Below, in pieces: positions 811 through 46,753 of a DNA stretch of 64,000 nucleotides. Under the pieces are notes generated by a model. It worked only from the letters and a program-made list of their open reading frames with translations, ran no database searches and was not told where the DNA came from. Origin of the DNA: Psilocybe cubensis (lineage: Eukaryota); the NCBI GenBank assembly GCA_017499595.2, contig JAFIQS020000014.1:1-64000 (forward strand), read 5' to 3'. Both the position numbers and the translations under genes were made by a program. The number at the start of each line of letters is the position of its first letter. The stretch's first letter is position 1.

Positions 811-1802
811 GCCACTGAAGAGTCTATAAAGACGAAAGGGCTGGTTGTTGGGATCCCCCAACAGCCCTCAAGTACTCGTCCTCTCCCAAACTCCTGCCGC
901 TTGTGCCTTCCCAACTCATCCGGGAGCCCTTTCGTCACTGATCTTGCCCTTGACTCGGGGACGTTTCATCGACATGTTGGCTGCCTCACGGCAAGCGGGG
1001 CCCTTTTTCTTTCACTCGCTCACGCCTTCTATGTTGGGTTACGGAGGTCATACAAACTCGTTTTAGTCTAGCTGCGGGGATATCCAGCTATGATGACTTT
1101 GTAATTCGAGGGCGCGCAGTTCTTCAATGGGTATGGACATCAGGTGAGAGTACACTGGGGGTTGTCAGGACCAGCTCTGCTGGATACGCTCCTGGCAAGT
1201 CGGTTGCAGCCGGCGACACTACCGAATTGCTGGGACGTCCTAAAGCTTGTGGGTACCGCCGACCGCTGGAAACAGCCTAGGCACCGGTGGCGACCGGGTA
1301 TGGTAACAATCCCCAAGATTCAGCGAAAGCTGGAATGGATAATCAGCAGCGAATCCGTAACGGTCACGCCGACGGAAGCGTTCAACGACTAGGTGGTAGT
1401 GGGGTCTTCGGATCTTAAGATATAGTCTTGGGAGTGGGGAAACCCACATCTGGTATCTAAACCGCGCCTCGCTGCTTACGAGGACGGCCCGAAGTCCAGA
1501 ACCGCTTAAAACGCGGGTGACCCGGCCTCCCCTTAGTAAAGGGAGTTAACACAAGGATGGACAAATAGTTCGTCGCCGGAAATGAACCTGTGGCTGTAAT
1601 GGCTGATGTGGCGCCCCTTGGTAAAGGGCTTAAAGGGTATTAGCCTGCCATGTCCAATGGCATGAGAGTGTCCCTTGGTAAAGGACTTAATAGGCAATAG
1701 CCTGCTCTTTTGTCATGAGCGGTATGTAGTGATCGTTTGCCTGTACGGTAGCGCCCATTGCTTGCACTGGTCCACGCCCGTAAAAAATCACGAGCCGCTG
1801 GC
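811..1802 (+). ncRNA. Type I hammerhead ribozyme split by a group I intron (exon halves 811-868 and 1798-1802)
   Basis: gcca-CTGAAGA-gtct ataa agac-GAAA-gggctg...cagcccT | insertion | Ctggc; joining 868 to 1798 regenerates the intact copy at 6157-6219. Confidence 0.9.
869..1797 (+). ncRNA. Group I intron (IC1-like), 929 nt, no homing endonuclease ORF
   Basis: P element AATTGCTGGG (~1225), Q AATCAGCAGC (~1341), R GTTCAACGACTA (~1380), S AAGATATAGTC (~1417); P3 cactacc/ggtagtg; P7 gacta/tagtc; P8 gggtc-ttcg-gatct; P9 gtggg-gaaa-cccac; 5' exon ends in U868, intron ends in G1797; IGS gggggttgt (1157-1165) pairs with acagccctc (861-869). Confidence 0.9.
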
Positions 1803-1911: not shown

Positions 1912-3070
1912 ATGTCATCCCAATACTCTGCTGCATTCTCTCGTGCCATGTCCCCTACCCTGGACGCACTCACCCAGGCCGTCGTCAACAACACTGTCTT
2001 CGGCGTCAACGATGAAGCAGGCCGCCATAACGCTCTTATCGACGAGCTGGCCACTGTGGTCATCAAAAAAATAGCTGAGTGCCGCTCCGTTGACCAAGTC
2101 ATAGACTGCGTCTTTTTTGACTATCGTGCTGCCCTCAGGGAGTTTCTCCTCAACCTCGCATCGTGGTGCGACAAGAGGGAAACAGTCAAGGCTAGCCTCG
2201 AGCGCCTTGAATCTGCCGTTAGCGCAGGCAACACGCCCAATCGCCTTAAGGTGAAGGCACCCGAGTTCCAACTTACGAAGGAATTCGCGGATGCCGGGTC
2301 AGCGGAGGCTCTTCGAGTCTCCACTACGTTCTCTTCCGCTCGTGATGCCTTCCAAAAGGCAATTAACGACGGCGCCGTTCAGGCGAAAAAGGACGAGCTG
2401 GCTTTTTGGGATGATAAATGCGCGCTCAACTCTTGCTACGAAGCTGCTGCCCTCATCGTTAAGGCAACTTACGATGATCGCAAATCCAGCTACAAGCTCC
2501 CTGTTTTCTCTACAGACAACAAGGGAGTTCGACGTATAGCAGAGTGGGTAGTGTCTCCGCAAAAGAAAGCCGAATGCAGTGCGCTGCAAACTATACTGCC
2601 GGCGATCTTTTCTCATATCAAACAGATTGTCAACATGCGCCACCGCGCCTTGGCAATTAAGATTGAGAAAAAGCGGACGACTGCGGCAACAGCCGATGTC
2701 GAGATGGCCGATGCGACCAAACCAGGTCCATCGATTCAATCCCTTATTGATAAGGGCTTGAATGCACGTCTCAAAAAGCTCAACCTTGGATCTGTGGGCA
2801 AGAAGGCAAGTTTTCGTAACCCTTCACCCATAATTCTGGACACTAATTATTACTCTAATTACCCAGACTTTGTCTGGCCAGAATTCGTCCAAGGCTCCTC
2901 AACCTCAGGCCAGGAAAGCTGGCCCTTCGAAACCCAAGTCGTCGTCGACGCCTTCGCAGAGGAAGCCTCAAACCAAGGCTTCCAACAAGGTCGACAACAA
3001 GAAGAAAGGGAAGGGGAGAGCTCCCGTCAAGAACAACGATCCAAAGGGAAAGGGAAAGGCAAGAGCCTAG
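1912..3070 (+). CDS. Predicted spliced ORF1 protein (join 1912-2805, 2867-3070; 365 aa) with Lys-rich C-terminal tail
   Basis: Spliced frame reads ...VGKK-TLSGQNSSKAPQPQ...KKKGKGRAPVKNNDPKGKGKARA*; open in all 7 copies. Confidence 0.65.
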
Positions 3071-5445
3071 ACGCGCGGTCTACTGTAGCATCATTTACGT
3101 CGGTGAGACCCGCCTTCCCCAACTCTATTCCTGACGATATACTCACCATGACTAAAACAGACGCAGTTTCTTTTGTACACCTCAATACCCCGATTTCATT
3201 CTTATTGGCTGGCCAGTATAGATCTAGTGTACACTGTAGTCCTGGTGTTTCGGTCCCTGTTGATGTAGCAAATGATTTATCTCTTGGACTCAATTATATG
3301 TTTTTTACACTGCCTTCTAAAAATCTGATCATGCAAGCATGGAATGATTTTCAACGAAGAATAAGATGGCGTATCTATTTTTTGTTTAAAGAAGGCATGA
3401 ATAAACCTTTCGATCCAGACTATGGAGTAAGCTCTAAAAAGAAAGAGAAACCTCCAATGTTACCGCAATTTATGGAACTTGGCCTTTCAATGGGACGTCG
3501 GTACGTTATTAAAACGATCGCAAGTATCCCGGAAGAAGCCCTTAAAGAGATGCGAAAGCACGCGTTCTCTCCTAAAAGGGACAAGATCCAAAAGTTTCTT
3601 TTCGATAACAACTATGTTATTACGATGACAGATAAGAATCTTGGCCTCGCGGTGTCTGAACGCGACTGGATATTAAGGAATGAGCTCAATCTTCTTGAAG
3701 ATGAACGCAACTACGAAGAGTTAGAATTCGAAGTTGCGCAAGAAGTTATGAAGAGCAAAATGATTCAGATGCAAACTCTCGCACGTACCGTCGAAGATGA
3801 ACATCTGTTTCTATTTGAACTTGGGTTGTCTCGATTCTTTCTATCGAATGTACCGGAAGACGGATCATCGTTCAAGTATCCTCAATTTCATGGTATACCT
3901 AAAATCCACAAGAAACCTACTGGATTTAGGCCCATAATTCCGTGTCACTCTGTAGTATTTAATCCTGCAGCCAAGTTTGTATCAAAAGAGCTTAAGCCGA
4001 TTATTAAATCGACTCCTTCAATCATTCACGGAACGAAGGATCTCTTTACGAGATTAAGCCAATTGCGTATAGACCCCAAACGACAATGGTATTTTGTCAC
4101 CGGGGATGTAGTTGCTTTCTATCCCAATATTCCGTTGGACTTGTGCATCGAAATCGTTTGTAATATGTACGAGGAATGGTTACTCAACGCTTCGGAAGAG
4201 AACACTGCATTAGCCCATATTAATCCAAATTCGTTAGAGAATAACTTGGTTAAATTGGGCATCTTTAAACGTGCTATCGAGATTGGCAATACGCAATTGA
4301 TAACACAACATGGGTCTAGATATTTTAGACAAAAAAATGGCCTCGCAATGGGCGTCGCGGATTCTCCGGACCTTGCTAACCTCTTTGGAGCCCATTTTGA
4401 AATAAAGTCAAAAATCTTAGACCACCCAAACGTGGCCTTCTATGGAAGGTACATCGACGATTGTTTCGCAATTGTTTACGCCGAGTCCGAAGCACTTGCA
4501 CTTAATCTTATTAAAGAAACAATAAAGTTCGATGGTTGTGTTATCGAATGGGCTGTTTCCTCGTCGGGATGTCAATTTCTCGATGCTTTCATATTCAAGG
4601 AGTCTGGAAAACTTCATTGGAAGCCATTTGTCAAGACAGGAAACAACCGAGAACGAGTTCCATGGGTATCACATCATCCTTTGGACGTCAAACGTGGCGT
4701 CTACATTGGAGAGTTATCCAGGTTAGCCGTGCTATGTAGTACTAAGGAAATCTACATCGGAGCAATTAGAGACCTTAACGCTCTCTATTTGATGCGCGGT
4801 TATCCCGAAAACCTAGTCATGTCTTGGTGTAAGAAGAATATACAAGAACGTTGGGAAAAGCGATTCGCTTTACGAGTCGCAGAGCACGACGAATCCATTC
4901 TTGTACTTAAAACCAGATTTGATCAGGTATGGAATTGGTTTTCAGCTGCTGAACTTGGAAAGACTGTTACCGAGTACTGGTCGGCATGGTATGAACATGC
5001 CGAGAAAGGTCTGTATAGTGCAGACTCGTCCAGACCCCTTATCAAACCAGATCCAAATTACGTTCACGACCTCGATGATGTTCGCCCGGAGCTGTTCACA
5101 CAGATCCTCGTGGACGGAGAAACTGAGTTCGTACCGGATTTGAGGAAGATAGGACTACTCGGAAGTCGTTGGATAGTATCGCGAAAGCGCAATACTAATC
5201 TTTTCGACCTTGCAAATGTGTGGAAGAAAACAGTCTTTCGTAAACTGGATGAAAACATCGCTGAAAAAGGTGGTGTTGTTCCCGAAACTCAAAACGTTAA
5301 TGAAACTTATCATTCTGCTCTAGTTGAAGCTGCTGAACAGATAAGTATCGAAAGTGATAACGAGATAATACTTCATAGACGTTCAATCTCACAAGAGAGG
5401 GAACATCCAGAATTCGGCAGAATATCCAAATTTTACAACCGATGA
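1912..5445 (+). CDS. Penelope-like element ORF1-reverse transcriptase polyprotein (1177 aa), no GIY-YIG endonuclease
   Basis: PLE-type RT motifs FHGIPKIHKKPTGFRPII, TGDVVAFYPNIP, RQKNGLAMGVADSPDLANLF, YGRYIDD, QFLD; helical/coiled-coil-like N-terminus; no GIY-YIG seen at the C-terminus. Confidence 0.95.
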   Translation: MSSQYSAAFSRAMSPTLDALTQAVVNNTVFGVNDEAGRHNALIDELATVVIKKIAECRSVDQVIDCVFFDYRAALREFLLNLASWCDKRETVKASLERLESAVSAGNTPNRLKVKAPEFQLTKEFADAGSAEALRVSTTFSSARDAFQKAINDGAVQAKKDELAFWDDKCALNSCYEAAALIVKATYDDRKSSYKLPVFSTDNKGVRRIAEWVVSPQKKAECSALQTILPAIFSHIKQIVNMRHRALAIKIEKKRTTAATADVEMADATKPGPSIQSLIDKGLNARLKKLNLGSVGKKASFRNPSPIILDTNYYSNYPDFVWPEFVQGSSTSGQESWPFETQVVVDAFAEEASNQGFQQGRQQEEREGESSRQEQRSKGKGKGKSLDARSTVASFTSVRPAFPNSIPDDILTMTKTDAVSFVHLNTPISFLLAGQYRSSVHCSPGVSVPVDVANDLSLGLNYMFFTLPSKNLIMQAWNDFQRRIRWRIYFLFKEGMNKPFDPDYGVSSKKKEKPPMLPQFMELGLSMGRRYVIKTIASIPEEALKEMRKHAFSPKRDKIQKFLFDNNYVITMTDKNLGLAVSERDWILRNELNLLEDERNYEELEFEVAQEVMKSKMIQMQTLARTVEDEHLFLFELGLSRFFLSNVPEDGSSFKYPQFHGIPKIHKKPTGFRPIIPCHSVVFNPAAKFVSKELKPIIKSTPSIIHGTKDLFTRLSQLRIDPKRQWYFVTGDVVAFYPNIPLDLCIEIVCNMYEEWLLNASEENTALAHINPNSLENNLVKLGIFKRAIEIGNTQLITQHGSRYFRQKNGLAMGVADSPDLANLFGAHFEIKSKILDHPNVAFYGRYIDDCFAIVYAESEALALNLIKETIKFDGCVIEWAVSSSGCQFLDAFIFKESGKLHWKPFVKTGNNRERVPWVSHHPLDVKRGVYIGELSRLAVLCSTKEIYIGAIRDLNALYLMRGYPENLVMSWCKKNIQERWEKRFALRVAEHDESILVLKTRFDQVWNWFSAAELGKTVTEYWSAWYEHAEKGLYSADSSRPLIKPDPNYVHDLDDVRPELFTQILVDGETEFVPDLRKIGLLGSRWIVSRKRNTNLFDLANVWKKTVFRKLDENIAEKGGVVPETQNVNETYHSALVEAAEQISIESDNEIILHRRSISQEREHPEFGRISKFYNR
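2806..2866 (+). other. Putative 61-nt GC-AG spliceosomal intron inside the ORF (also 7465-7525, 12608-12668, 17660-17720, 25246-25306, 30368-30428, 35675-35735)
   Basis: AAG|GCAAGT donor, CTAAT branch motifs, CCCAG| acceptor, AT-rich; removal joins codon 298 to the +1 frame ORF ending at 3070. Confidence 0.7.
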
Positions 5446-6156: not shown

Positions 6157-6219
6157 GCCACTGAAGAGTCTATAAAGACGAAAGGGCTGGTTGTTGGGAT
6201 CCCCCAACAGCCCTCTGGC
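6157..6219 (+). ncRNA. Type I hammerhead ribozyme, intact (predicted cleavage after C6215)
   Basis: Helix I gcca/tggc, CUGAAGA, helix II gtct/agac, GAAA, helix III gggctg/cagccc, CUC triplet. Other intact copies start at 6399, 10816, 15962, 16596, 21007, 23449, 24182, 28593, 29304, 33714, 34611, 39033. Confidence 0.92.
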
Positions 6220-6290
6220 CTTCTTTCTATTTCAAACTCACAGTTTAAACTAGTCGCTCGCACCTCGCTTCGCTCGGTGCTCGCTCCCAC

Positions 6291-6348
6291 CCTAAACCCT
6301 AAACCCTAAACCCTAAACCCTAAAACCTAAACCCTAAACCCTAAACCC
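6291..6348 (+). repeat. Interstitial telomeric tract between units 1 and 2
   Basis: (CCCTAAA)n with one variant. Confidence 0.93.
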
Positions 6349-9300
6349 ATCACTTCACGCGCTGTCATCGGATGTCTAGAACATTCCTTCTAAGAATAGC
6401 CACTGAAGAGTCTATAAAGACGAAAGGGCTGGTTGTTGGGATCCCCCAACAGCCCTCTGGCCTTCTTTCTATTTCAAACTCACAGTTTAAACTAGTCGCT
6501 CGCACCTCGCTTCGCTCGGTGCTCGCTCCCCCCCTAAACCCAACGACTTTGCTATCACCCATCAGTTACCATGTCATCCCAATACTCTGCTGCATTCTCT
6601 CGTGCCATGTCCCCTACCCTGGACGCACTCACCCAGGCCGTCGTCAACAACACTGTCTTCGGCGTCAACGATGAAGCAGGCCGCCATAACGCTCTTATCG
6701 ACGAGCTGGCCACTGTGGTCATCAAAAAAATAGCTGAGTGCCGCTCCGTTGACCAAGTCATAGACTGCGTCTTTTTTGACTATCGTGCTGCCCTCAGGGA
6801 GTTTCTCCTCAACCTCGCATCGTGGTGCGACAAGAGGGAAACAGTCAAGGCTAGCCTCGAGCGCCTTGAATCTGCCGTTAGCGCAGGCAACACGCCCAAT
6901 CGCCTTAAGGTGAAGGCACCCGAGTTCCAACTTACGAAGGAATTCGCGGATGCCGGGTCAGCGGAGGCTCTTCGAGTCTCCACTACGTTCTCTTCCGCTC
7001 GTGATGCCTTCCAAAAGGCAATTAACGACGGCGCCGTTCAGGCGAAAAAGGACGAGCTGGCTTTTTGGGATGATAAATGCGCGCTCAACTCTTGCTACGA
7101 AGCTGCTGCCCTCATCGTTAAGGCAACTTACGATGATCGCAAATCCAGCTACAAGCTCCCTGTTTTCTCTACAGACAACAAGGGAGTTCGACGTATAGCA
7201 GAGTGGGTAGTGTCTCCGCAAAAGAAAGCCGAATGCAGTGCGCTGCAAACTATACTGCCGGCGATCTTTTCTCATATCAAACAGATTGTCAACATGCGCC
7301 ACCGCGCCTTGGCAATTAAGATTGAGAAAAAGCGGACGACTGCGGCAACAGCCGATGTCGAGATGGCCGATGCGACCAAACCAGGTCCATCGATTCAATC
7401 CCTTATTGATAAGGGCTTGAATGCACGTCTCAAAAAGCTCAACCTTGGATCTGTGGGCAAGAAGGCAAGTTTTCGTAACCCTTCACCCATAATTCTGGAC
7501 ACTAATTATTACTCTAATTACCCAGACTTTGTCTGGCCAGAATTCGTCCAAGGCTCCTCAACCTCAGGCCAGGAAAGCTGGCCCTTCGAAACCCAAGTCG
7601 TCGTCGACGCCTTCGCAGAGGAAGCCTCAAACCAAGGCTTCCAACAAGGTCGACAACAAGAAGAAAGGGAAGGGGAGAGCTCCCGTCAAGAACAACGATC
7701 CAAAGGGAAAGGGAAAGGCAAGAGCCTAGACGCGCGGTCTACTGTAGCATCATTTACGTCGGTGAGACCCGCCTTCCCCAACTCTATTCCTGACGATATA
7801 CTCACCATGACTAAAACAGACGCAGTTTCTTTTGTACACCTCAATACCCCGATTTCATTCTTATTGGCTGGCCAGTATAGATCTAGTGTACACTGTAGTC
7901 CTGGTGTTTCGGTCCCTGTTGATGTAGCAAATGATTTATCTCTTGGACTCAATTATATGTTTTTTACACTGCCTTCTAAAAATCTGATCATGCAAGCATG
8001 GAATGATTTTCAACGAAGAATAAGATGGCGTATCTATTTTTTGTTTAAAGAAGGCATGAATAAACCTTTCGATCCAGACTATGGAGTAAGCTCTAAAAAG
8101 AAAGAGAAACCTCCAATGTTACCGCAATTTATGGAACTTGGCCTTTCAATGGGACGTCGGTACGTTATTAAAACGATCGCAAGTATCCCGGAAGAAGCCC
8201 TTAAAGAGATGCGAAAGCACGCGTTCTCTCCTAAAAGGGACAAGATCCAAAAGTTTCTTTTCGATAACAACTATGTTATTACGATGACAGATAAGAATCT
8301 TGGCCTCGCGGTGTCTGAACGCGACTGGATATTAAGGAATGAGCTCAATCTTCTTGAAGATGAACGCAACTACGAAGAGTTAGAATTCGAAGTTGCGCAA
8401 GAAGTTATGAAGAGCAAAATGATTCAGATGCAAACTCTCGCACGTACCGTCGAAGATGAACATCTGTTTCTATTTGAACTTGGGTTGTCTCGATTCTTTC
8501 TATCGAATGTACCGGAAGACGGATCATCGTTCAAGTATCCTCAATTTCATGGTATACCTAAAATCCACAAGAAACCTACTGGATTTAGGCCCATAATTCC
8601 GTGTCACTCTGTAGTATTTAATCCTGCAGCCAAGTTTGTATCAAAAGAGCTTAAGCCGATTATTAAATCGACTCCTTCAATCATTCACGGAACGAAGGAT
8701 CTCTTTACGAGATTAAGCCAATTGCGTATAGACCCCAAACGACAATGGTATTTTGTCACCGGGGATGTAGTTGCTTTCTATCCCAATATTCCGTTGGACT
8801 TGTGCATCGAAATCGTTTGTAATATGTACGAGGAATGGTTACTCAACGCTTCGGAAGAGAACACTGCATTAGCCCATATTAATCCAAATTCGTTAGAGAA
8901 TAACTTGGTTAAATTGGGCATCTTTAAACGTGCTATCGAGATTGGCAATACGCAATTGATAACACAACATGGGTCTAGATATTTTAGACAAAAAAATGGC
9001 CTCGCAATGGGCGTCGCGGATTCTCCGGACCTTGCTAACCTCTTTGGAGCCCATTTTGAAATAAAGTCAAAAATCTTAGACCACCCAAACGTGGCCTTCT
9101 ATGGAAGGTACATCGACGATTGTTTCGCAATTGTTTACGCCGAGTCCGAAGCACTTGCACTTAATCTTATTAAAGAAACAATAAAGTTCGATGGTTGTGT
9201 TATCGAATGGGCGGTTTCCTCGTCGGGATGTCAATTTCTCGATGCTTTCATATTCAAGGAGTCTGGAAAACTTCATTGGAAGCCATTTGTCAAGACAGGA

Positions 9301-10951
9301 AACAACCGAGAACGAGTTCCATGGGTATCACATCATCCTTTGGACGTCAAACGTGGCGTCTACATTGGAGAGTTATCCAGGTTAGCCGTGCTATGTAGTA
9401 CTAAGGAAATCTACATCGGAGCAATTAGAGACCTTAACGCTCTCTATTTGATGCGCGGTTATCCCGAAAACCTAGTCATGTCTTGGTGTAAGAAGAATAT
9501 ACAAGAACGTTGGGAAAAGCGATTCGCTTTACGAGTCGCAGAGCACGACGAATCCATTCTTGTACTTAAAACCAGATTTGATCAGGTATGGAATTGGTTT
9601 TCAGCTGCTGAACTTGGAAAGACTGTTACCGAGTACTGGTCGGCATGGTATGAACATGCCGAGAAAGGTCTGTATAGTGCAGACTCGTCCAGACCCCTTA
9701 TCAAACCAGATCCAAATTACGTTCACGACCTCGATGATGTTCGCCCGGAGCTGTTCACACAGATCCTCGTGGACGGAGAAACTGAGTTCGTACCGGATTT
9801 GAGGAAGATAGGACTACTCGGAAGTCGTTGGATAGTATCGCGAAAGCGCAATACTAATCTTTTCGACCTTGCAAATGTGTGGAAGAAAACAGTCTTTCGT
9901 AAACTGGATGAAAACATCGCTGAAAAAGGTGGTGTTGTTCCCGAAACTCAAAACGTTAATGAAACTTATCATTCTGCTCTAGTTGAAGCTGCTGAACAGA
10001 TAAGTATCGAAAGTGATAACGAGATAATACTTCATAGACGTTCAATCTCACAAGAGAGGGAACATCCAGAATTCGGCAGAATATCCAAATCTTACAACCG
10101 ATGAAAAGAATACTAGCGCGTAAGGCGTAAAGCATTAGAAAAAAACCCTAACCGTAAGTATTCCTTGCTATAAAGTAACAAACATCTACTTACAAGCAAC
10201 ACTTTGGATTAAATAGCTAAACCTAAACCCTAAACCCTAAACCCTAAACCCTAACCTAACCCCAACCCTAAGCTAACTAAGTCTAACCTTAGTAGGAAGT
10301 AAGGTAGGCGTGTGAACTTCCGAACGGCATGTGATTGTGAAGGGCCGGATCTAATTTAGTACATGGGAAAAGTTACTTAGTACTTCGGGAAAAGTTCCTT
10401 AGTACCGTGGAAACATTTTTGATGGACCGGATCATGAACTGTCCAATTAAGATTCACAACAATCAATCATTCTATTGTTTGATTGTTAGGTAAGGACCCA
10501 GGTAAGCTATTTATACTCTAGACATGTGAATATTCCCATGTCGCGGTTACTCGGAGCCACGTAACCAGAGTAATCTATATCCATGTGATTCACATCACAG
10601 TCAATAACCCACGATGTCAAAGAACAAAAGTGTTGGATCCACTTTTGACAGGTTACCATGTGCCACATCGACCCGTGACACTCTGTTCATCAGAGACCTG
10701 TCTAACTTGACAATAAACATTGACAGATTTGTGATAGTCGGTAAGATACATGACAGCTGCGCAGCATCACTTCACGCGCTGTCATCGGATGTCTAGAACA
10801 TTCCTTCTAAGAATAGCCACTGAAGAGTCTATAAAGACGAAAGGGCTGGTTGTTGGGATCCCCCAACAGCCCTCTGGCCTTCTTTCTATTTCAAACTCAC
10901 AGTTTAAACTAGTCGCTCGCACCTCGCTTCGCTCGGTGCTCGCTCCCCCCC
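6348..10951 (+). mobile_element. Penelope-like element unit 2 (short 5' pLTR, no group I intron)
   Basis: Near-identical to unit 1 but lacking the 929-nt insertion. Confidence 0.92.
6571..10104 (+). CDS. PLE ORF1-RT polyprotein (1177 aa)
   Basis: Same RT motifs as unit 1. Confidence 0.95.
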   Translation: MSSQYSAAFSRAMSPTLDALTQAVVNNTVFGVNDEAGRHNALIDELATVVIKKIAECRSVDQVIDCVFFDYRAALREFLLNLASWCDKRETVKASLERLESAVSAGNTPNRLKVKAPEFQLTKEFADAGSAEALRVSTTFSSARDAFQKAINDGAVQAKKDELAFWDDKCALNSCYEAAALIVKATYDDRKSSYKLPVFSTDNKGVRRIAEWVVSPQKKAECSALQTILPAIFSHIKQIVNMRHRALAIKIEKKRTTAATADVEMADATKPGPSIQSLIDKGLNARLKKLNLGSVGKKASFRNPSPIILDTNYYSNYPDFVWPEFVQGSSTSGQESWPFETQVVVDAFAEEASNQGFQQGRQQEEREGESSRQEQRSKGKGKGKSLDARSTVASFTSVRPAFPNSIPDDILTMTKTDAVSFVHLNTPISFLLAGQYRSSVHCSPGVSVPVDVANDLSLGLNYMFFTLPSKNLIMQAWNDFQRRIRWRIYFLFKEGMNKPFDPDYGVSSKKKEKPPMLPQFMELGLSMGRRYVIKTIASIPEEALKEMRKHAFSPKRDKIQKFLFDNNYVITMTDKNLGLAVSERDWILRNELNLLEDERNYEELEFEVAQEVMKSKMIQMQTLARTVEDEHLFLFELGLSRFFLSNVPEDGSSFKYPQFHGIPKIHKKPTGFRPIIPCHSVVFNPAAKFVSKELKPIIKSTPSIIHGTKDLFTRLSQLRIDPKRQWYFVTGDVVAFYPNIPLDLCIEIVCNMYEEWLLNASEENTALAHINPNSLENNLVKLGIFKRAIEIGNTQLITQHGSRYFRQKNGLAMGVADSPDLANLFGAHFEIKSKILDHPNVAFYGRYIDDCFAIVYAESEALALNLIKETIKFDGCVIEWAVSSSGCQFLDAFIFKESGKLHWKPFVKTGNNRERVPWVSHHPLDVKRGVYIGELSRLAVLCSTKEIYIGAIRDLNALYLMRGYPENLVMSWCKKNIQERWEKRFALRVAEHDESILVLKTRFDQVWNWFSAAELGKTVTEYWSAWYEHAEKGLYSADSSRPLIKPDPNYVHDLDDVRPELFTQILVDGETEFVPDLRKIGLLGSRWIVSRKRNTNLFDLANVWKKTVFRKLDENIAEKGGVVPETQNVNETYHSALVEAAEQISIESDNEIILHRRSISQEREHPEFGRISKSYNR

Positions 10952-11012
10952 TAAAACCCCTAAACCCTAAACCCTAAACCCTAACCCTAAACCCTAAACC
11001 CTAAACCCTAAA
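10951..11012 (+). repeat. Interstitial telomeric tract
   Basis: (CCCTAAA)n with variants. Confidence 0.93.
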
Positions 11013-11602
11013 AGCCGGCGACACTACCGAATTGCTGGGACGTCCTAAAGCTTGTGGGTACCGCCGACCGCTGGAAACAGCCTAGGCACCGGTGGCGACC
11101 GGGTATGGTAACAATCCCCAAGATTCAGCGAAAGCTGGAATGGATAATCAGCAGCGAATCCGTAACGGTCACGCCGACGGAAGCGTTCAACGACTAGGTG
11201 GTAGTGGGGTCTTCGGATCTTAAGATATAGTCTTGGGAGTGGGGAAACCCACATCTGGTATCTAAACCGCGCCTCGCTGCTTACGAGGACGGCCCGAAGT
11301 CCAGAACCGCTTAAAACGCGGGTGACCCGGCCTCCCCTTAGTAAAGGGAGTTAACACAAGGATGGACAAATAGTTCGTCGCCGGAAATGAACCTGTGGCT
11401 GTAATGGCTGATGTGGCGCCCCTTGGTAAAGGGCTTAAAGGGTATTAGCCTGCCATGTCCAATGGCATGAGAGTGTCCCTTGGTAAAGGACTTAATAGGC
11501 AATAGCCTGCTCTTTTGTCATGAGCGGTATGTAGTGATCGTTTGCCTGTACGGTAGCGCCCATTGCTTGCACTGGTCCACGCCCGTAAAAAATCACGAGC
11601 CG
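11013..11602 (+). ncRNA. 5'-truncated second copy of the group I intron (catalytic core to omega-G; P1/IGS missing)
   Basis: Matches 1208-1797 by eye; ends ...cacgagccG|ctggc. Confidence 0.9.
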
Positions 11603-11713: not shown

Positions 11714-14700
11714 ATGTCATCTCAATACTCTGCTGCTTTCTCTCGTGCCATGTCCCCCACCCTGGACGCACTCACCCAGGCCGTCGTCAACAACACCGTT
11801 TTCGGCGTCAACGATGAAGCAGGCCGCCATAACGCTCTGATCGACGAGCTGGCCACTGTGGTCATCAAAAAAATAGCTGAGTGCCGCTCCGTTGACCAAG
11901 TCATAGACTGCGTCTTTTTTGACTATCGTGCTGCCCTTAGGGAGTTTCTCCTCAACCTCGCATCGTGGTGCGATAAGAGGGAAACAGTCAAGGCTAGCCT
12001 CGAGCGCCTTGAATCTGCCGTTAGCGCAGGCAACACGCCCAATCGCCTTAAGGTGAAGGCACCCGAGTTCCAACTTACGAAGGAATTCGCGGATGCCGGG
12101 TCAGCGGAGGCTCTTCGAGTCTCCACTACGTTCTCTACCGCTCGTGACGCCTTCCAAAAGGCAATTAACGACGGCGCCATTCAGGCGAAAAAGGACGAGC
12201 TGACTTTTTGGGATGATAAATGCGCACTCAACTCTTGCTACGAAGCTGCTGCCCTCATCGTTAAGGCAACTTACGATGATCGCAAATCCAGCTACAAGCT
12301 CCCTGTTTTCTCTACAGATAACAAGGGAGTTCGACGTATAGCAGAGTGGGTAGTGTCTCCGCAAAAGAAAGCCGAATGCAGTGCGCTGCAAACCATACTG
12401 CCGGCGATCTTTTCTCACATCAAACAAATTGTCAACATGCGCCACCGCGCTTTGGCAATTAAGATTGAGAAAAAGCGGACGACTGCGGCAACAGCCGATG
12501 TCGAGATGGCCGACGCGACCAAACCAGGTCCGTCGATTCAATCCCTTATTGATAAGGGCTTGAATGCACGTCTCAAGAAGCTCAACCTTGGATCTGTGGG
12601 CAAGAAGGCAAGTTTTCGTAACCCTTCACCCATAATTCTGGATACTAATTACTACTCTAATTACCCAGACTTTGTCTGGCCAGAATTCGTCCAAGGCTCC
12701 TCAACCTCAGGCCAAGAAAGCTGGCCCTTCGAAACCCAAGTCGTCGTCGACGCCTTCGCAACGCAAGCCTCAAACCAAGGCTTCCAACAAGGTCGACAAC
12801 AAGAAGAAAGGGAAGGGGAGAGCTCCCGTCAAGAACGATCCAAAGGGAAAGGGAAAGGCAAGAGCCTAGATGCGCGGTCTAATGTAGTACCTTTTACGTC
12901 GGTGAGACCCGCCTTCCCCAACTCTATTCCTGACGATATACTCACCATGACTAAAACAGACGCAGTTTCTTTCGTACACTTACATACTCCAATATCATTC
13001 TTGTTGGCTGGCCAGTATCGTAGTAGTGTACATTGTAGTCCTGGTGTTTCTGTCCCTGTTGATGTAGCAAACGATCTCTCTCTCGGACTTAATTATATGT
13101 TTTTCACTCTGCCTTCTAAAAGTCTGATCATGCAAGCATGGAATGATTTCCAACGAAGAATAAGATGGCGTATCTATTTTTTGTTTAAGGAAGGCATGAA
13201 TAAACCTTTTGATCCAGATTATGGAGTAAGCTCAAAAAAGAAAGAGAAACCTCCTGTATTACCGCAATATATGGAACTTGGCCTTTCGATGGGACGTCGG
13301 TACGTGCAACGCACGATCGCAAGTATCCCGGAAGAAGCCCTTACGGAGATGCGAAAGCACGCGTTCTCTCCTAAAAGGGACAAGATCCGTAAGTTTCTTA
13401 TCGATAACAACTATGTTATTACGATGACAGATAAGAATCTTGGCCTCGCGGTGTCTGAACGCGACTGGATATTAAGGAATGAGCTCAATCTTCTTGAAGA
13501 TGAACGTAATTACGAAGAGTTAGAATTCGAAGTTGCGCAAGAAGTTATGAAGAGCAAAATGATTCAGATGCAAACGCTCGCACGTACTGTCGAAGATGAA
13601 CATCTGTTTCTATTTGAACTTGGGTTGTCTCGATTCTTTCTATCGAATGTACCGGAAGACGGATCATCGTTCAAGTATCCTCAATTTCATGGTATACCTA
13701 AAATCCACAAGAAACCTACTGGATTTAGGCCCATAATTCCGTGTCACTCTGTAGTATTTAATCCTGCAGCCAAGTTTGTATCAAAAGAGCTTAAGCCGAT
13801 TATTAAATCGACTCCTTCAATCATACACGGAACGAAGGATCTCTTTACGAGATTAAGCCAATTGCGTATAGACTCCAAAAGACAATGGTATTTTGTCACT
13901 GGAGATGTAGTTGCTTTCTATCCCAATATTCCGTTGGACTTGTGCATCGAAATCGTTTATAGTATGTACGAGGAATGGTTACTCAACGCTTCGGAAGAAA
14001 ACACTGCATTAGCCCATATTAATCCAAATTCGTTAGAGAATAACTTGGTTAAATTGGGCATCTTTAAACGTGCTATCGAGATTGGCAATACGCAATTGAT
14101 AACACAACATGGGTCTAGATATTTTAGACAAAAAAATGGCCTCGCAATGGGCGTCGCGGATTCTCCGGACCTTGCTAACCTCTTTGGAGCCCATTTTGAA
14201 ATAAAGTCAAAAATCTTAGACCACCCAAACGTGGCCTTCTATGGAAGGTACATCGACGATTGTTTCGCAATTGTTTACGCCGAGTCCGAAGCACTTGCAC
14301 TTAATCTTATTAAAGAAACAATAAAGTTCGATGGTTGTGTTATCGAATGGGCTGTTTCCTCGTCGGGATGTCAATTTCTCGATGCTTTCATATTCAAGGA
14401 GTCTGGAAAACTTCATTGGAAGCCTTTTGTCAAGACAGGAAACAACCGAGAACGAGTTCCATGGGTATCACATCATCCTTTGGACGTCAAACGTGGCGTC
14501 TACATTGGAGAGTTATCCAGGTTAGCCGTGCTATGTAGTACCAAGGAAATCTACATCGGAGCAATTAGAGACCTTAACGCTCTCTATTTGATGCGCGGTT
14601 ATCCCGAAAACCTAGTCATATCTTGGTGTAAGAAGAATATACAAGAACGTTGGGAAAAGCGATTCGCTTTACGAGTCGCAGAGCACGACGAATCCATTCT

Positions 14701-16090: not shown

Positions 16091-16171
16091 CCCCTAAACC
16101 CTAAACCCTAAACCCTAAACCCTAAACCCTAAACCCTAAACCCTAAACCCTAAACCCTAAACCCTAAACCC
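16091..16171 (+). repeat. Interstitial telomeric tract
   Basis: (CCCTAAA)n. Confidence 0.93.
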
Positions 16172-19100
16172 TCGGGAAAAGTTCCTTAGTACCGTGGAAA
16201 CATTTTTGATGGACCGGATCATGAACTGTCCAATTAAGATTCACAACAATCAATCAATTGATTGTTAGGTAAGGACCCAGGTAAGCTATTTATACTCTTG
16301 ACATGAGAATATTCCCATGTCACGGTTACTCGGAGCCACGTAACCAGAGTATTTTATATCCATGTGATTCACATCACAGTCAATAACCCACGATGTCAAA
16401 GAACAAAAGTGTTGGATCCACTTTTGACAGGTTACCATGTGCCACATCGACCCGTGACACTCTGTTCATCAGAGATCTGTCTAACTTGACAATAAACATT
16501 GACAGATTTGTGATAGTCGGTAAGATACATGACAGCTGCGCAGCATCACTTCACGCGCTGTCATCGGATGTTCCAGAACATTCCTTCTAAGAATAGCCAC
16601 TGAAGAGTCTATAAAGACGAAAGGGCTGGCTGCTGATAACAATCAACAGCCCTCTGGCCTTCTTTCCATTTAACTCACAGTTTAAACAAGTCGCTCGCAC
16701 CTCGCTTCGCTCGGTGCTCGCTCCCCCCCTAAACCCAACGACTTTGCTATTACCCAACAGCTACTATGTCTTCCACTTACTCTGCTGCCTTCTCTCGTGC
16801 CATGTCCCCCACCCTGGACGCACTCACCCAGGCTGTCGTCAACAACACAGTTTTTGGCGTCAACGACGAAGCTGGCCGCCACAACGCCCTCATCGACGAG
16901 TTGGCCACTGTCGTCATCAAGAAAATAGCTGAGTGCCGCTCCATTGACCAGATTGTAGACTGCGTCTTTTTTGACTATCGTGCTGCCCTTAGGGAGTTTC
17001 TCCTCAACCTCGCATCGTGGTGCGATAAGAGGGAAACAGTCAAGGCTAGCCTCGAGCGCCTTGAACTTGCCGTTAGCGCAGGCAACACCCCCAATCGCCT
17101 TCGGGTGAAGGCTCCCGAGTTCCAACTTACGAAGGAATTCGCGGATGCCGGGTCAGCGGAAGCTCTTCGAGTTTCCTCTACGTTCTCCACCGCTCGTGAT
17201 GTCTTCCAAAAGGCAATCAACGACGGCGCCATTCAGGCGAAAAAGGACGAACTGGCCTTTTGGGATGATAAATGCGCACTCAATAACTGTTATGAAGCTG
17301 CTGCCCTCATCGTTAAGACAACTTACGATGATCGCAAATCCAGCTATAAGCTCCCCGTTTTCTCTACAGACAACAAGGGAGTTCGTCGAATAACAGATTG
17401 GGTAGTGTCACCGCAGAAGAAGGCTGAATGCAGCGCATTGCAAACCATTTTGCCAGCCATCTTCTCTCATATCAAACAGATTGTCAACTTGCGCCACCGC
17501 GCTTTGGCAATCAAGATTGAGAAAAAGCGGTCGACTGCGGCAACAGCCGATGTCGAGATGGCCGATGCGACCAAACCAGGTCCATCGATTCAATCCCTTA
17601 TTGATAAGGGCTTGAATGCACGTCTCAAGAAGCTCAACCTTGGATCTGTGGGCAAGAAGGCAAGTTCTCGTAACCCTTCACCCATAATTCTGGATACTAA
17701 TTACTATTCTAATTACCCAGACTTTGTCTGGCCAGAATTCGTCCAAGGCTCCTCAACCTCAGGCCAAGAAAGCTGGCCCTTCGAAATTCAAACCCTCGTC
17801 GACGCCTTCGCAGAAGAAGCCCCAAACCAAGGCTTCCAACAAGGTCGACAACAAGAAGAAAGGGAAGGGGAGAGCTCCCGTCAAGAACGATCCAAAGGGA
17901 AAGGGAAAGGCAAGAGCCTAGACGCGCGGTCTAATGTAGTACCTTTTACGTCGGTAAGACCCGCCTTCCCCAACTCTATTCCTGACGATATACTCACCAT
18001 GACTAAAACAGACGCAGTTTCTTTTGTACACTTACATACGCCGATCTCATTCTTGTTGGCTGGCCAGTATCGTAGTAGTGTACACTGTAGTCCTGGTGTG
18101 GTGGTCCCTGTAGATATAGCAAATGATTTGTCACTCGGACTCAATTATATGTTTTTTACTCTGCCTTCTCAAAGTCTGATCATGCAAGCATGGAATGATT
18201 TTCAACGAAGAATAAGATGGCGTATCTATTTTTTGTTTAAGGAAGGCATGAACAAACCTTTTGATCCAGATTACGGAGTAAGCTCAAAAAAGAAAGAGAA
18301 ACCTCCAGTATTACCGCAATACATGGAACTTGGCCTTTCGATGGGACGTCGGTACGTGCAACGCACGATCGCAAGTATCCCGGAAGAAGCCCTTACGGAG
18401 ATGCGAAAGCACGCGTTCTCTCCTAAAAGGGACAAGATCCGTAAGTTTCTTATCGATAACAACTATGTTATTACGATGACAGATAAGAATCTTGGCCTCG
18501 CGGTGTCTGAACGCGACTGGATATTAAGGAATGAGCTCAATCTTCTTGAAGATGAACGTAACTATGAAGAGTTAGAATTCGAAGTTGCGCAAGAAGTAAT
18601 GAAGAGCAAAATGATCCAGATGCAAACTCTTGCACGTACCGTCGAAGATGAACATCTGTTTCTATTTGAACTTGGGTTGTCTCGATTCTTTCTATCGAAT
18701 GTACCGGAAGACGGATCATCGTTCAAGTATCCTCAATTTCATGGTATACCTAAAATCCACAAAAAACCTACTGGATTTAGACCCATAATTCCGTGTCACT
18801 CTGTAGTATTTAATCCTGCAGCCAAGTTTGTATCAAAAGAGCTTAAGCCGATTATTAAATCGACTCCTTCAATCATTCACGGAACGAAGGATCTCTTTAC
18901 GAGATTAAGCCAATTGCGTATAGACCCCAAACGACAATGGTATTTTGTCACCGGGGATGTAGTTGCTTTCTATCCCAATATTCCGTTGGACTTGTGCATC
19001 GAAATCGTTTGTAATATGTACGAGGAATGGTTACTCAACGCTTCGGAAGAAAACACTGCATTAGCCCATATTAATCCAAATTCGTTAGAGAATAACTTGG

Positions 19101-21140
19101 TTAAATTGGGCATCTTTAAACGTGCTATCGAGATTGGCAATACGCAATTGATAACACAACATGGGTCTAGATATTTTAGACAAAAAAATGGCCTCGCAAT
19201 GGGCGTCGCGGATTCTCCGGACCTTGCTAACCTCTTTGGAGCCCATTTTGAAATAAAGTCAAAAATCTTAGACCACCCAAACGTGGCCTTCTATGGAAGG
19301 TACATCGACGATTGTTTCGCAATTGTTTACGCCGAGTCCGAAGCACTTGCACTTAATCTTATTAAAGAAACAATAAAGTTCGATGGTTGTGTTATCGAAT
19401 GGGCTGTTTCCTCGTCGGGATGTCAATTTCTCGATGCTTTCATATTCAAGGAGTCTGGAAAACTTCATTGGAAGCCATTTGTCAAGACAGGAAACAACCG
19501 AGAACGAGTTCCATGGGTATCACATCATCCTTTGGACGTCAAACGTGGCGTCTACATTGGAGAGTTATCCAGGTTAGCCGTGCTATGTAGTACCAAGGAA
19601 ATCTACATCGGAGCAATTAGAGACCTTAACGCTCTCTATTTGATGCGCGGTTATCCCGAAAACCTAGTCATGTCTTGGTGTAAGAAGAATATACAAGAAC
19701 GTTGGGAAAAGCGATTCGCTTTACGAGTCGCAGAGCACGACGAATCCATTCTTGTACTTAAAACCAGATTTGATCAGGTATGGAATTGGTTTTCAGCTGC
19801 TGAACTTGGAAAAACTGTTACCGAGTACTGGTCGGCATGGTATGAACATGCCGAGAAAGGTTTGTATAGTGCAGACTCGTCCAGACCCCTTATCAAACCA
19901 GATCCAAATTACGTTCACGACCTCGATGATGTTCGCCCGGAGCTGTTCACACAGATCCTCGTGGACGGAGAAACTGAGTTCGTACCGGATTTGAGGAAGA
20001 TAGGACTACTCGGAAGTCGTTGGATAGTATCGCGAAAACGCAATACTAATCTTTTCGACCTTACAAATGTGTGGAAGAAAACAGTCTTTCGTAAACTGGA
20101 TGAAGACATCGCTGAAAAAGGTGGTGTTGTTCCCGAAACTCAAAACGTTAATGAAACTTATCATTCTGCTTTAGTTGAAGCTGCTGAACAGATAAGTATC
20201 GAAAGTGATAACGAGATAATACTTCATAGACGTTCAATCTCACAAGAGAGGGAACATCCAGAATTCGGCAGAATATCCAAATCTTACAACCGATGAAAAG
20301 AATACTAGCGCGTAAGGCGTAAAGCATTAGAAAAAAACCCTAACCGTAAGTATTCCTTGCTACAAAGTAACAAACATCTACTTACAAGCAACACATTGGA
20401 TTAAATAGCTAAACCTAAACCTAAACCCTAAACCCTAAACCCTAAGCCCTAACCTAACCCCAACCCTAAGCTAACTAAGTCTAACCTTAGTAGGAAGTAA
20501 GGTAGGCGTGTGAACTTCCGAAAGGCATGTGATTGTGAAGGGCCGGATCTAATTTAGTACATGGGAAAAGTTACTTAGTACCTCGGGAAAAGTTCCTTAG
20601 TACCGTGGAAACATTTTTGATGGACCGGATCATGAACTGTCCAATTAAGATTCACAACAATCAATCAATTGATTGTTAGGTAAGGACCCAGGTAAGCTAT
20701 TTATACTCTTGACATGAGAATATTCCCATGTCACGGTTACTCGGAGCCACGTAACCAGAGTATTTTATATCCATGTGATTCACATCACAGTCAATAACCC
20801 ACGATGTCAAAGAACAAAAGTGTTGGATCCACTTTTGACAGGTTACCATGTGCCACATCGACCCGTGACACTCTGTTCATCAGAGATCTGTCTAACTTGA
20901 CAATAAACATTGACAGATTTGTGATAGTCGGTAAGATACATGACAGCTGCGCAGCATCACTTCACGCGCTGTCATCGGATGTTCCAGAACATTCCTTCTA
21001 AGAATAGCCACTGAAGAGTCTATAAAGACGAAAGGGCTGGCTGCTGATAACAATCAACAGCCCTCTGGCCTTCTTTCCATTTAACTCACAGTTTAAACAA
21101 GTCGCTCGCACCTCGCTTCGCTCGGTGCTCGCTCCCCCCC
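16171..21140 (+). mobile_element. Penelope-like element unit 4 (subfamily with MSSTY start and ctgataacaatc hammerhead loop)
   Basis: pLTR-ORF-pLTR between telomere tracts. Confidence 0.92.
16766..20296 (+). CDS. PLE ORF1-RT polyprotein (1176 aa)
   Basis: Same RT motifs. Confidence 0.95.
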   Translation: MSSTYSAAFSRAMSPTLDALTQAVVNNTVFGVNDEAGRHNALIDELATVVIKKIAECRSIDQIVDCVFFDYRAALREFLLNLASWCDKRETVKASLERLELAVSAGNTPNRLRVKAPEFQLTKEFADAGSAEALRVSSTFSTARDVFQKAINDGAIQAKKDELAFWDDKCALNNCYEAAALIVKTTYDDRKSSYKLPVFSTDNKGVRRITDWVVSPQKKAECSALQTILPAIFSHIKQIVNLRHRALAIKIEKKRSTAATADVEMADATKPGPSIQSLIDKGLNARLKKLNLGSVGKKASSRNPSPIILDTNYYSNYPDFVWPEFVQGSSTSGQESWPFEIQTLVDAFAEEAPNQGFQQGRQQEEREGESSRQERSKGKGKGKSLDARSNVVPFTSVRPAFPNSIPDDILTMTKTDAVSFVHLHTPISFLLAGQYRSSVHCSPGVVVPVDIANDLSLGLNYMFFTLPSQSLIMQAWNDFQRRIRWRIYFLFKEGMNKPFDPDYGVSSKKKEKPPVLPQYMELGLSMGRRYVQRTIASIPEEALTEMRKHAFSPKRDKIRKFLIDNNYVITMTDKNLGLAVSERDWILRNELNLLEDERNYEELEFEVAQEVMKSKMIQMQTLARTVEDEHLFLFELGLSRFFLSNVPEDGSSFKYPQFHGIPKIHKKPTGFRPIIPCHSVVFNPAAKFVSKELKPIIKSTPSIIHGTKDLFTRLSQLRIDPKRQWYFVTGDVVAFYPNIPLDLCIEIVCNMYEEWLLNASEENTALAHINPNSLENNLVKLGIFKRAIEIGNTQLITQHGSRYFRQKNGLAMGVADSPDLANLFGAHFEIKSKILDHPNVAFYGRYIDDCFAIVYAESEALALNLIKETIKFDGCVIEWAVSSSGCQFLDAFIFKESGKLHWKPFVKTGNNRERVPWVSHHPLDVKRGVYIGELSRLAVLCSTKEIYIGAIRDLNALYLMRGYPENLVMSWCKKNIQERWEKRFALRVAEHDESILVLKTRFDQVWNWFSAAELGKTVTEYWSAWYEHAEKGLYSADSSRPLIKPDPNYVHDLDDVRPELFTQILVDGETEFVPDLRKIGLLGSRWIVSRKRNTNLFDLTNVWKKTVFRKLDEDIAEKGGVVPETQNVNETYHSALVEAAEQISIESDNEIILHRRSISQEREHPEFGRISKSYNR

Positions 21141-21217
21141 TAAACCCTAAACCCTAAACCCTAAACCCTAAACCCTAAACCCTAAACCCTAAACCCTAAA
21201 CCCTAAACCCTAACCCT
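21138..21217 (+). repeat. Interstitial telomeric tract
   Basis: (CCCTAAA)n. Confidence 0.93.
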
Positions 21218-45761: not shown

Positions 45762-46753
45762 ATGTCTACATTCAACGTTAACATCGCTCACGTTAACACC
45801 TCCCAAAGTGTCCCTGTTAGCACGCCCAGATTACCCCAATCCGCTGGAAACTCTTCTGGTGCTGGTGCCACAACATATGTAGTGGCGCCACAGGCGACAT
45901 CGTCGTCAAAATATGACCCCCAACCTTGGACTGATATTTTGTCGTTGGTGGGACCTACCCCACGAGACATCTTGGAGATATACTATGCAAAGTTCTCGAG
46001 TCATACCGTCGACGTTGGAAAAGCGGCACCCAGCGAGGAGTCCACCAACCTCATCCGTTCGCCAGTAGATGTGCTTTTAGGGTTTCCACAATCCGGCAGC
46101 GGAGATGTGTCCCAACGTCATGACAATTTTCATCGTACAACCTCTGGTTCCGTGGCGAAGGAGTCCGAGTCGATTGTGGACCGTCTTGTCGTGGTTAGCC
46201 TGGCCACTGGAACGGTAGACCCAGCCGTTCTCATTCGCACGTCACGCCGCTCCCGAGAGAAGCGTTCACAGGGCGTGATGCGGAGCCAGGCGGCGTCAGA
46301 CAGACATCACCCTTACAACGTGGCGAATAGGCCGTCCAGGATAGCTGTACCGAGAAACAGTGGTAACGAAGATGCAAACACTTTCTGTCGTCCATCCGGA
46401 GAGACAGAAAACACACAATTTAGGACTTCCCAGCACCGGGAACAACACCACAGGCACGGCTCCGGGAATGATATTCCCGTTGAGCAGATGCCTCTGACGG
46501 CACCGAACCCAAACGAAGATGGAAGGTAATTTGTGGATTTCTATCTCTCGATATCATGACACTGACAGTTTTTTTATGCAGGGATTCGGAGATGAGGGGG
46601 TCAACCGGAGATGGGGATAGTGGGGAGACTGAACAGCCGCCGCGAAAAATGCAGGGTCATAGAAGTGATAGAGACCCTTGCTTTAGAACCCGGGAGGAGA
46701 TTTGCTCCCAGGGCAAGGCGGGTGTAGGGAAAAGGAAGAGGCAAAAGCGGTGA
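45762..46753 (+). CDS. Two-exon hypothetical protein, low-complexity, with C-terminal basic NLS-like KRKRQKR
   Basis: Long ORF from ATG 45762; AG|GTAATT...CTGAC...TGCAG| intron joins in frame to the 46556-46753 ORF; TATA-like motif near 45667. Confidence 0.6.

Follow-up and report, generated by a model that had tools for sequence, protein, structure and literature searches.

Retroelements need far more structural protein than polymerase, and they are known to achieve this by ribosomal frameshifting, by stop-codon readthrough or, in a few long terminal repeat (LTR) elements, by alternative splicing. Penelope-like elements are the closest relatives of telomerase. Exitrons are alternatively spliced introns inside coding exons and have been described for cellular genes; we know of no description of them as a gag/pol-type switch of a retroelement. 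Here we report on a tandem array of an apparently Penelope-like retroelement at a chromosome end of Psilocybe cubensis, located in the first 64,000 nt of contig JAFIQS020000014.1 (GenBank assembly GCA_017499595.2, forward strand), and this whole stretch of DNA is referred to as the window. The long open reading frame (ORF) of the element joins an ORF1 protein to a reverse transcriptase (RT) through a candidate intron, and splicing or retention of that intron most likely decides whether a basic-tailed ORF1 or an ORF1-RT fusion is made.

Athena and Coprina are the described elements that this array resembles in layout. According to the accounts in PMC8557442 and PMC13159263, they are telomeric, with reverse-complement telomere repeats between head-to-tail copies and ORFs pointing toward the centromere. 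The same accounts give them hammerhead ribozymes in their flanks, a 'DKN' RT without endonuclease, a coiled-coil or disordered ORF1 region and introns that are retained in genomic copies. Conserved introns are described there for Penelope-like elements, with a single ORF in Coprina, two in Athena and a frameshift-separated ORF1 in some animal elements (PMC8557442, PMC13159263).

A splicing switch is described for BARE1, a barley LTR retrotransposon of the Copia superfamily, whose single gag-pol ORF contains a 104-nt facultative intron near the end of gag (PMC3735527). As that paper presents it, splicing shifts the frame and a stop follows 3 residues later; spliced RNA gives Gag only and unspliced RNA the polyprotein, and this was demonstrated experimentally (PMC3735527). 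Arabidopsis EVD, a Ty1-copia element, is reported to form a subgenomic GAG RNA by alternative splicing (PMC5580714), and Drosophila copia likewise (PMC3735527).

Candidate intron and reading frames

The first copy of the element carries a read-through ORF of 1177 aa (1912-5445, + strand), which comprises the ORF1 core, an intron peptide, a linker and the RT. An intact ORF of 1176 or 1177 aa is present in seven copies of the window, and one copy is 5'-truncated within the ORF. The ORF1 core, equivalent to exon 1 (298 aa, 1912-2805, +), combines helices with a single beta hairpin and closes with a highly conserved ADVEMAD...PGPSIQS motif. Directly behind it lies a candidate spliceosomal GC-AG intron of 61 nt (2806-2866, +), in phase 0 and of 3n+1 length, which is stop-free in the ORF1/RT frame, resembles an exitron and behaves as a translated intron. 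The donor AAG/GCAAGT (2803-2811) is placed on a codon boundary, two branch-like CTAAT motifs are found at 2842-2846 and 2855-2859, and the acceptor CAG ends at 2866. The same intron is found on the + strand at 7465-7525 (copy 2), 12608-12668, 17660-17720, 25246-25306, 30368-30428 and 35675-35735, and the donor, branch and acceptor signals are identical in 7/7 full-length copies.

With the 61 nt removed, the exon 1 frame would resume at 2867 and stop at a TAG at 3068-3070. This is the +1 or spliced frame, in which 2867-3070 (+) encodes a basic tail of 67 aa, so that 298 + 67 aa give a protein of 365 aa. The tail is Lys/Ser/Pro-rich, with 15 K, 4 R, 2 D and no E, and has a pI of 11.7; the long frame reads the same nucleotides as an acidic/Gln-rich linker. 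The first-pass annotation of this DNA had proposed a long ORF running through an intron-like stretch, a shift into a K/P/S-rich tail and a 365-aa product, and on the sequence all of this was borne out.

The copies of the window form about four lineages that differ by at most 5%. At 2959-2962 the long frame reads EE or TQ and the spliced frame Q-R (Q-K in three copies), at 2968 the spliced frame reads P/P and the long frame S/P, and the sole indel across 2700-3200 is one of 3 nt (3032-3034). These differences, quoted in the first pass as synonymous in the spliced frame but not in the long one, are real. Among the variable codons of 2867-3070, 4/9 are fully synonymous in the spliced frame, 2/9 in the long frame and 1/10 in the third frame, and within the intron 3/4 variable sites are synonymous in the long frame. 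Given so few lineages, such thin substitution counts and three frames that are all open over 2867-3070, the window copies by themselves are weak evidence and prove little; the relatives are decisive.

Eighty related metagenomic loci were compared, 51 of which hold the C-terminal part of ORF1; the other 29 have no ORF1 match and were left out. For the order ORF1-then-RT one further locus, L053, was left out (its parts lie in tandem order), and clustering of the 50 loci used and the window copy at 70% nucleotide identity gives 32 clusters. In 50/50 metagenomic loci ORF1 and RT lie in a single frame with no stop in between, which upholds the expectation that the unspliced frame leads from ORF1 into the RT. 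With the window copy included, the long frame is stop-free in 51/51 loci and 32/32 clusters, and the other two frames are stop-free across the gap in 0/51 and 2/51 loci (0/32 and 1/32 clusters), with means of 3.4 and 4.1 stops. No intron-less copy was found among the 50 loci.

Introns were called with a home-made splice-site score in the 31 metagenomic loci that contain an anchor motif, and four window copies were scored alongside. In 27 of these 31 loci the best-scoring intron occupies the homologous site in phase 0 and measures 49-61 nt, with a length of 3n+1 in every case; a phase-0 3n+1 intron is also the best in all four window copies. Exceptions are L028, with a phase 1 intron of 79 nt, and L017, L036 and L037, which were mis-scored and each have 3n+1 alternatives. 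Inside the intron of the 27 called loci and the four window copies the long frame is stop-free in 31/31, and the other frames contain stops in 27/31 and 28/31. Donor, branch-like and YAG acceptor motifs recur at one place despite differing encoded residues. Nineteen more distant loci (28-46% protein identity) also have 3n+1 candidates followed by basic tails, and these count for less because their listing was pre-filtered for 3n+1 or 3n+2 candidates and a stop. Beyond the 27 called loci, this filtered listing holds candidates for 22.

The tails predicted in the spliced frame are 54-75 aa long, contain 26-35% K+R and 2-9% D+E, and have a KGKGK-like end in 27/31 loci; the KGKGK-type ending and the position of the stop are kept in relatives down to 28-40% identity. 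Annotated proteins present the same picture. A search with the ORF1 core returned near-identical proteins of Psilocybe cubensis (94-99% identity) and ORF1-only proteins of 334-400 aa annotated in Psilocybe cubensis, P. cyanescens, P. cf. subviscida, Hypholoma, Gymnopilus, Mycena, Plicaturopsis, Trametes and Lenzites; Mucidula was also matched. The ORF1-only proteins inspected, Mucidula not among them, carry a Lys/Ser/Pro-rich tail after the ADVEMAD...PGPSIQS motif, often ending in KGKGK plus a few residues, and in several of them the junction follows immediately on the Lys-Lys ahead of the candidate donor of the window. A second protein search gave 54 long relatives, about 40 of which are read-through ORF1-RT proteins of 1150-1210 aa. 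These long relatives are mostly metagenomic, with ORFs called without splicing, and at the junction their alignment reads KK-V-S/R, matching a GT donor. The ORF1 profile search recovered no spliced ORF1 from un-annotated sources (metagenomes, Logan).

The ratio of nonsynonymous to synonymous differences (pN/pS) was calculated (Nei-Gojobori method) for nine pairs that are phylogenetically independent and for four further, deeper pairs. Exon 1 and the RT serve as baselines, at 0.20 and 0.18. Over the overlap 2867-3070 the values for the tail, long and third frames are 0.27, 1.34 and 1.97 in the nine pairs and 0.35, 1.04 and 2.03 in the four deeper pairs. In the intron the nine pairs give 0.28 in the long frame (0.27 without its ends) and 0.92 and 1.38 in the other two. 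By these ratios purifying selection acts on the tail in the spliced frame, and in the long frame the intron changes in the manner of a coding sequence. Constraint in both frames had been anticipated in the first pass, which took the overlap for dual-coding. The part of that claim concerning the spliced frame stands, but the long frame is unconstrained over 2867-3070 and its constraint is located in the intron. Because the tail frame is constrained there and the long frame is not, 2867-3070 encodes a single constrained product, the tail, and the long frame is just an open spacer there.

It had further been suggested that a weak GC donor serves as the control device. All 27 called relatives use GT donors, of varied strength, and GC is confined to the four window copies scored, although these donor-type counts are partly circular, since the home-made score favours GTRAGT. 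The GC donor is specific to this lineage and hence is not the conserved device; within the lineage it may lower splicing efficiency. In public gene models of P. cubensis the donor is a GT lying 12 nt ahead of the GC site: from the junction of model P0008 an alternative donor GTGGGC is deduced at 2794-2799 (+), and its use would give an intron of 73 nt (2794-2866), also 3n+1. Homology with the relatives and the fit to the consensus favour the GC site over this upstream GT.

How the reverse transcriptase would be made

In the favoured mechanism, to which we give a probability of roughly three in four, spliced RNA gives the basic-tailed ORF1, intron-retaining RNA gives ORF1-RT, and splicing sets the ratio of the two. 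Removal of the intron would lead the ORF1 frame into the 67-aa tail and yield the 365-aa helical protein, which judging by its composition is presumably a nucleic-acid-binding or chaperone partner; the abundance that the first pass ascribed to it would likewise be read from composition. Retention would lead translation through the intron peptide and the freely evolving linker into the RT, and the resulting ORF1-RT fusion would be the only evident route to the RT. The ratio of ORF1 to ORF1-RT would then follow from the fraction of transcripts that escape splicing. If the RT is encoded by unspliced RNA only, the presence of the intron in every genomic copy would follow, and unspliced RNA would presumably be copied preferentially.

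This switch between splicing and retention is favoured because the layout is conserved, both readings are under selection, the RT has no start of its own in most loci and slippery sites are not conserved. As to the start of the RT, the stretch from the ORF1 stop to the conserved N-terminal motif of the RT is without an in-frame ATG in 27/31 loci; the exceptions are L022, L024 and L027, and L001, where the position of the motif was mis-called, was left out. The first in-frame Met is found about 40-57 residues beyond the start of the motif in many loci and 3-20 residues beyond it in others. Since the RT N-terminus of most relatives is without its own start codon, the RT would have to be made as an extension of ORF1.

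Several observations weigh against the switch. Neither a spliced junction nor an RNA run containing the element was found, and the contigs of the available runs are uninformative on expression either way: run X2, which is DNA-like and holds the element at high depth, has no 2805>2867 joint, and run X1 has three short pieces. The P. cubensis donor is GC, not GT, the GT used by the public models is a poor one, and either site may be the exact donor; those spliced models may moreover be ab initio predictions. The intron calls, too, come from a score with a bias toward GTRAGT. The coding signal of the intron is weaker in the four deeper pairs, at 0.55 in the long frame versus 0.74 and 0.98, with few changes and one pair identical. 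The third frame is also stop-free over 2867-3070 in 24/31 loci, so that an open long frame in this part is weak evidence when taken alone. Finally, a G GGA AAG or G GGA AAA heptamer occurs in the tail frame near the ORF1 stop in 11/31 loci, including all four window copies scored.

This heptamer belongs to the alternative that survives best, improbable as we consider it to be, in which splicing is essentially constitutive and the RT is produced from the spliced mRNA by programmed -1 frameshifting near the end of ORF1. The geometry fits, as a -1 shift leads from the spliced ORF1 frame to that of the RT, and in the window copies G GGA AAG is read in the tail frame, 5-7 codons ahead of the stop. 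L001, L002, L004, L005 and L024 have this heptamer or one like it (the last near the start of its tail), and the legend of Fig. 1 in PMC8557442 refers to an ORF1 of some Penelope-like elements that is separable by a frameshift with a pseudoknot. However, the heptamer is missing in 20/31 loci, and the 99 nt downstream in the window fold no better than shuffled sequences (z = -0.70; 54/200 shuffles as good). Frameshifting would also leave unexplained the lack of long-frame stops in the intron in every case, the coding-like evolution of the intron in that frame and the openness of the whole gap in 32/32 clusters.

Less probable again is that spliced ORF1 and the RT are separate proteins, the RT being initiated internally or by reinitiation and the openness of the long frame being incidental. 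The window offers an in-frame ATG at 3148, 7 residues into the RT N-terminal motif and thus just past its start, but this Met is not conserved. A start at the first Met would in many loci fall 40-60 residues inside the conserved RT N-terminal region (3-20 in others, the window included), and an incidental long frame is at odds with its being open in 32/32 clusters versus 0/32 and 1/32 for the other frames.

A reading without any splicing, in which the long ORF is the sole reading of the mRNA and ribosomes enter the tail through a +1 frameshift near the 'acceptor', fares slightly worse and is very unlikely in our judgement. It would agree with the coding-like evolution of the 'intron' and with the lack of spliced RNA among the runs. 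Yet the donor, branch-like and YAG motifs recur in place though the encoded residues differ, and the segment, though variable in length (49-61 nt), keeps to 3n+1 throughout. In 27/31 loci the tail frame is interrupted by stops within the segment, sometimes by the acceptor's own TAG, which would confine the shift to a few bases, and no conserved shifty site is found near the acceptor. That the tail is a low-complexity annotation artefact without function, as three open frames and the thin substitution evidence within the window might suggest, is scarcely credible against tail-frame pN/pS values of 0.27 and 0.35, with at least 1.0 in the other frames, and an ending and stop position that are conserved down to 28-40% identity.

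Identity of the element and its flanks

The window starts with a telomere repeat, (CCCTAAA)n, at 1-169 (no strand assigned), which marks the chromosome end, and shorter blocks of the same repeat lie between the element copies. About eight copies are arranged head-to-tail, all on the + strand, and 12 CCCTAAA-type blocks were counted in the window; the 5' ends of the copies are distal, and some copies are 5'-truncated. The repeats at 1-169 and 236-305 are of the 7-nt CCCTAAA (TTTAGGG) type, and the element of the related locus L070 is followed by repeats of the CCCTAA type. In the part of the window that follows the element array, 40000-64000, a single ORF of at least 200 aa is listed (45762-46529).

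The RT was recognized by its motifs. TDKNLG (aa 573-578; 3628-3645, +) has T, D, K, N, L and G invariant in an alignment of 27 sequences, and YIDD, the RT active site (aa 847-850; 4450-4461, +), is invariant or nearly so in the same alignment; PMC13159263 names a 'DKN' motif as typical of Penelope-like RTs. A Pfam scan of the long ORF and its parts found no family beyond a chance-level HEPN match. A weak RT family match was obtained with NCBIfam Drt3a (E 9.2e-6) and a weak match to an RT chain in a PDB profile search (E 0.03), and relatives of the long ORF carry PF00078 as precomputed annotation. The nearest ESM-Atlas clusters contain rotifer and basidiomycete proteins with PF28514/PF26215, which we take as a lead only. 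On the RT part Pfam gave no family at E<=10, and NCBIfam gave no endonuclease family; the silence of Pfam on a GIY-YIG endonuclease is weak evidence, because the same scan also failed on the RT. No LTRs were found for the element, and the Pfam and NCBIfam scans gave no Gag, protease or integrase families.

By motifs and layout, rather than by an RT tree, the element fits an endonuclease-less Penelope-like retroelement of the Coprina/Athena type; the fit to this type comes from its telomeric position, the distal 5' ends, the interspersed telomere repeats and the hammerheads in the flanks. In common with Athena and Coprina as PMC8557442 and PMC13159263 describe them, it has telomeric head-to-tail arrays, telomere-repeat spacers, ORFs directed toward the centromere, hammerheads, a DKN RT, a coiled-coil or disordered ORF1 region and intron retention.

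The ORF1 core was modelled confidently with AlphaFold (pLDDT 82.5) as long helices with one beta hairpin, and a Foldseek comparison of the model with PDB gave no fold at E<=0.001. The stretch ADVEMAD-x3-5-PGPSIQS-L/M-I/V-D-K (2692-2760, ORF1 aa 261-283) is near-invariant in ORF1 relatives down to 26% identity and much more conserved than the remainder of ORF1.

Upstream of ORF1, a type-I hammerhead with a long helix III was predicted by a motif and helix scan at 815-869 (+), with cleavage expected after C869. The array holds 14 hammerhead copies, and every repeated flank has one (e.g. 6161-6215, 16600-16654, 39037-39091). They share the layout CUGANGA / helix II / GAAA / long helix III / UH, which is common to most relatives among loci L001-L071, and paired changes in helix III occur between copies. 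Rfam reported no hammerhead in the window, even at E<=0.1, and these variants escape its curated models.

In copy 1 the helix-I partner of the hammerhead is moved 929 nt downstream by a group I intron-like segment (869-1797, core 1208-1449, +) that matches RF00028 with 70.9 bits. A second RF00028 match in the window is located at 11013-11254 (71 bits), and both are above the gathering score. Copy 1 has the whole segment and copy 3 a 5'-truncated one, the other copies lack precisely this segment, and by DNA depth it belongs to a minority of copies; its 5' boundary is at most 1 base from the hammerhead cleavage site. The related locus L070 (31% protein identity) has a homologous segment of 846 nt, 65% identical over the full length, with RF00028 matches of 72.8 and 76.5 bits at 3905-4750 and 5018-5331, the latter a second ribozyme copy. 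There the segment lies 13 nt past the hammerhead site of the 5' flank; the 3' flank on that contig lacks it. The possibility that the second L070 ribozyme interrupts the start of ORF1 was checked and is not supported. Weaker RF00028 matches (31.6-39.6 bits) lie upstream of ORF1 in L051 (608-1009), L064 (957-1321) and L069 (1-294). The exon-U/intron-G rule can be fitted to both presence/absence junctions, in the window and L070, with an ambiguity of 1 nt, and no convincing P1 guide sequence was found in either segment. The ribozyme may be a self-splicing or reverse-spliced intron in a nuclear non-rDNA retrotransposon. No report of a group I intron resident in a nuclear retrotransposon was found in the literature searched; PMC4209133 names group I introns solely as the source of an endonuclease family.

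The leader upstream of ORF1 (1798-1911, +) contains CCCTAAACCC at 1875-1884, where copies abut telomere repeats. The centromere-side end of each copy stops at this internal CCCTAAACCC, with boundaries at 6290-6348, 10950-11012, 16092-16172 and 21138-21218, and the distal truncation points vary, being equivalent to positions 310, 760, 1208, about 1802 and 3924. These ends would fit priming of reverse transcription by the telomeric G-overhang on the internal CCCTAAACCC, followed by capping by telomerase. Runs X5 and X6, guessed to be RNA, contain only 62 nt of the leader (1818-1879), joined to about 255 nt of unrelated sequence, and this stretch may be shared with another transcribed element or gene.

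Comparison with known switches and meaning

The proposed switch resembles that of BARE1, as set out in PMC3735527, in having a single ORF and an optional short intron whose removal ends translation after the structural protein. It differs in that the stop does not come after 3 residues but after a conserved basic tail of 54-75 aa (67 in the window) under purifying selection, in that the intron itself is under coding constraint, in that splicing is here deduced from sequence, and in that the element is Penelope-like and not an LTR element. The mechanism would thus be BARE1/copia-like, yet the element is by all appearances no member of that group, with no LTRs, Gag, protease or integrase found. 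With copia and EVD (PMC3735527, PMC5580714) it would share the use of alternative splicing, not ribosomal frameshifting, for an excess of structural protein over enzymes; as far as those papers describe them, copia and EVD splice out much of pol or link splicing with premature termination, whereas a 61-nt intron here would merely change the frame.

The literature searched, which lay outside supplements and Gladyshev & Arkhipova 2007, gave no description of an ORF1/ORF1-RT switching intron in Coprina or Athena, and a prior description is possible. Like an exitron, the segment combines splice signals with coding constraint, and its length is not a multiple of three, so that splicing alters the C-terminus.

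The two annotations commonly given to such elements, a single 1170-aa 'hypothetical protein' or a 360-aa protein with an RT fragment, would each be half right. A wider proposition seems to us evenly balanced between true and false: that in a whole, deeply diverged clade of telomere-adding Penelope-like elements in mushroom-forming fungi the RT is produced only via a retained spliceosomal intron and the basic-tailed ORF1 only via splicing, that the switch is tuned by donor strength (GT variants, and GC in Psilocybe cubensis), and that this is also the reason why intron-containing RNA is always copied. If the switch operates as proposed, it would extend the splicing solution to Penelope-like elements with two twists, a translated intron under coding constraint and a spliced frame that encodes a conserved basic tail and not just a stop, and it would account in functional terms for the puzzling retention of introns in Penelope-like elements.

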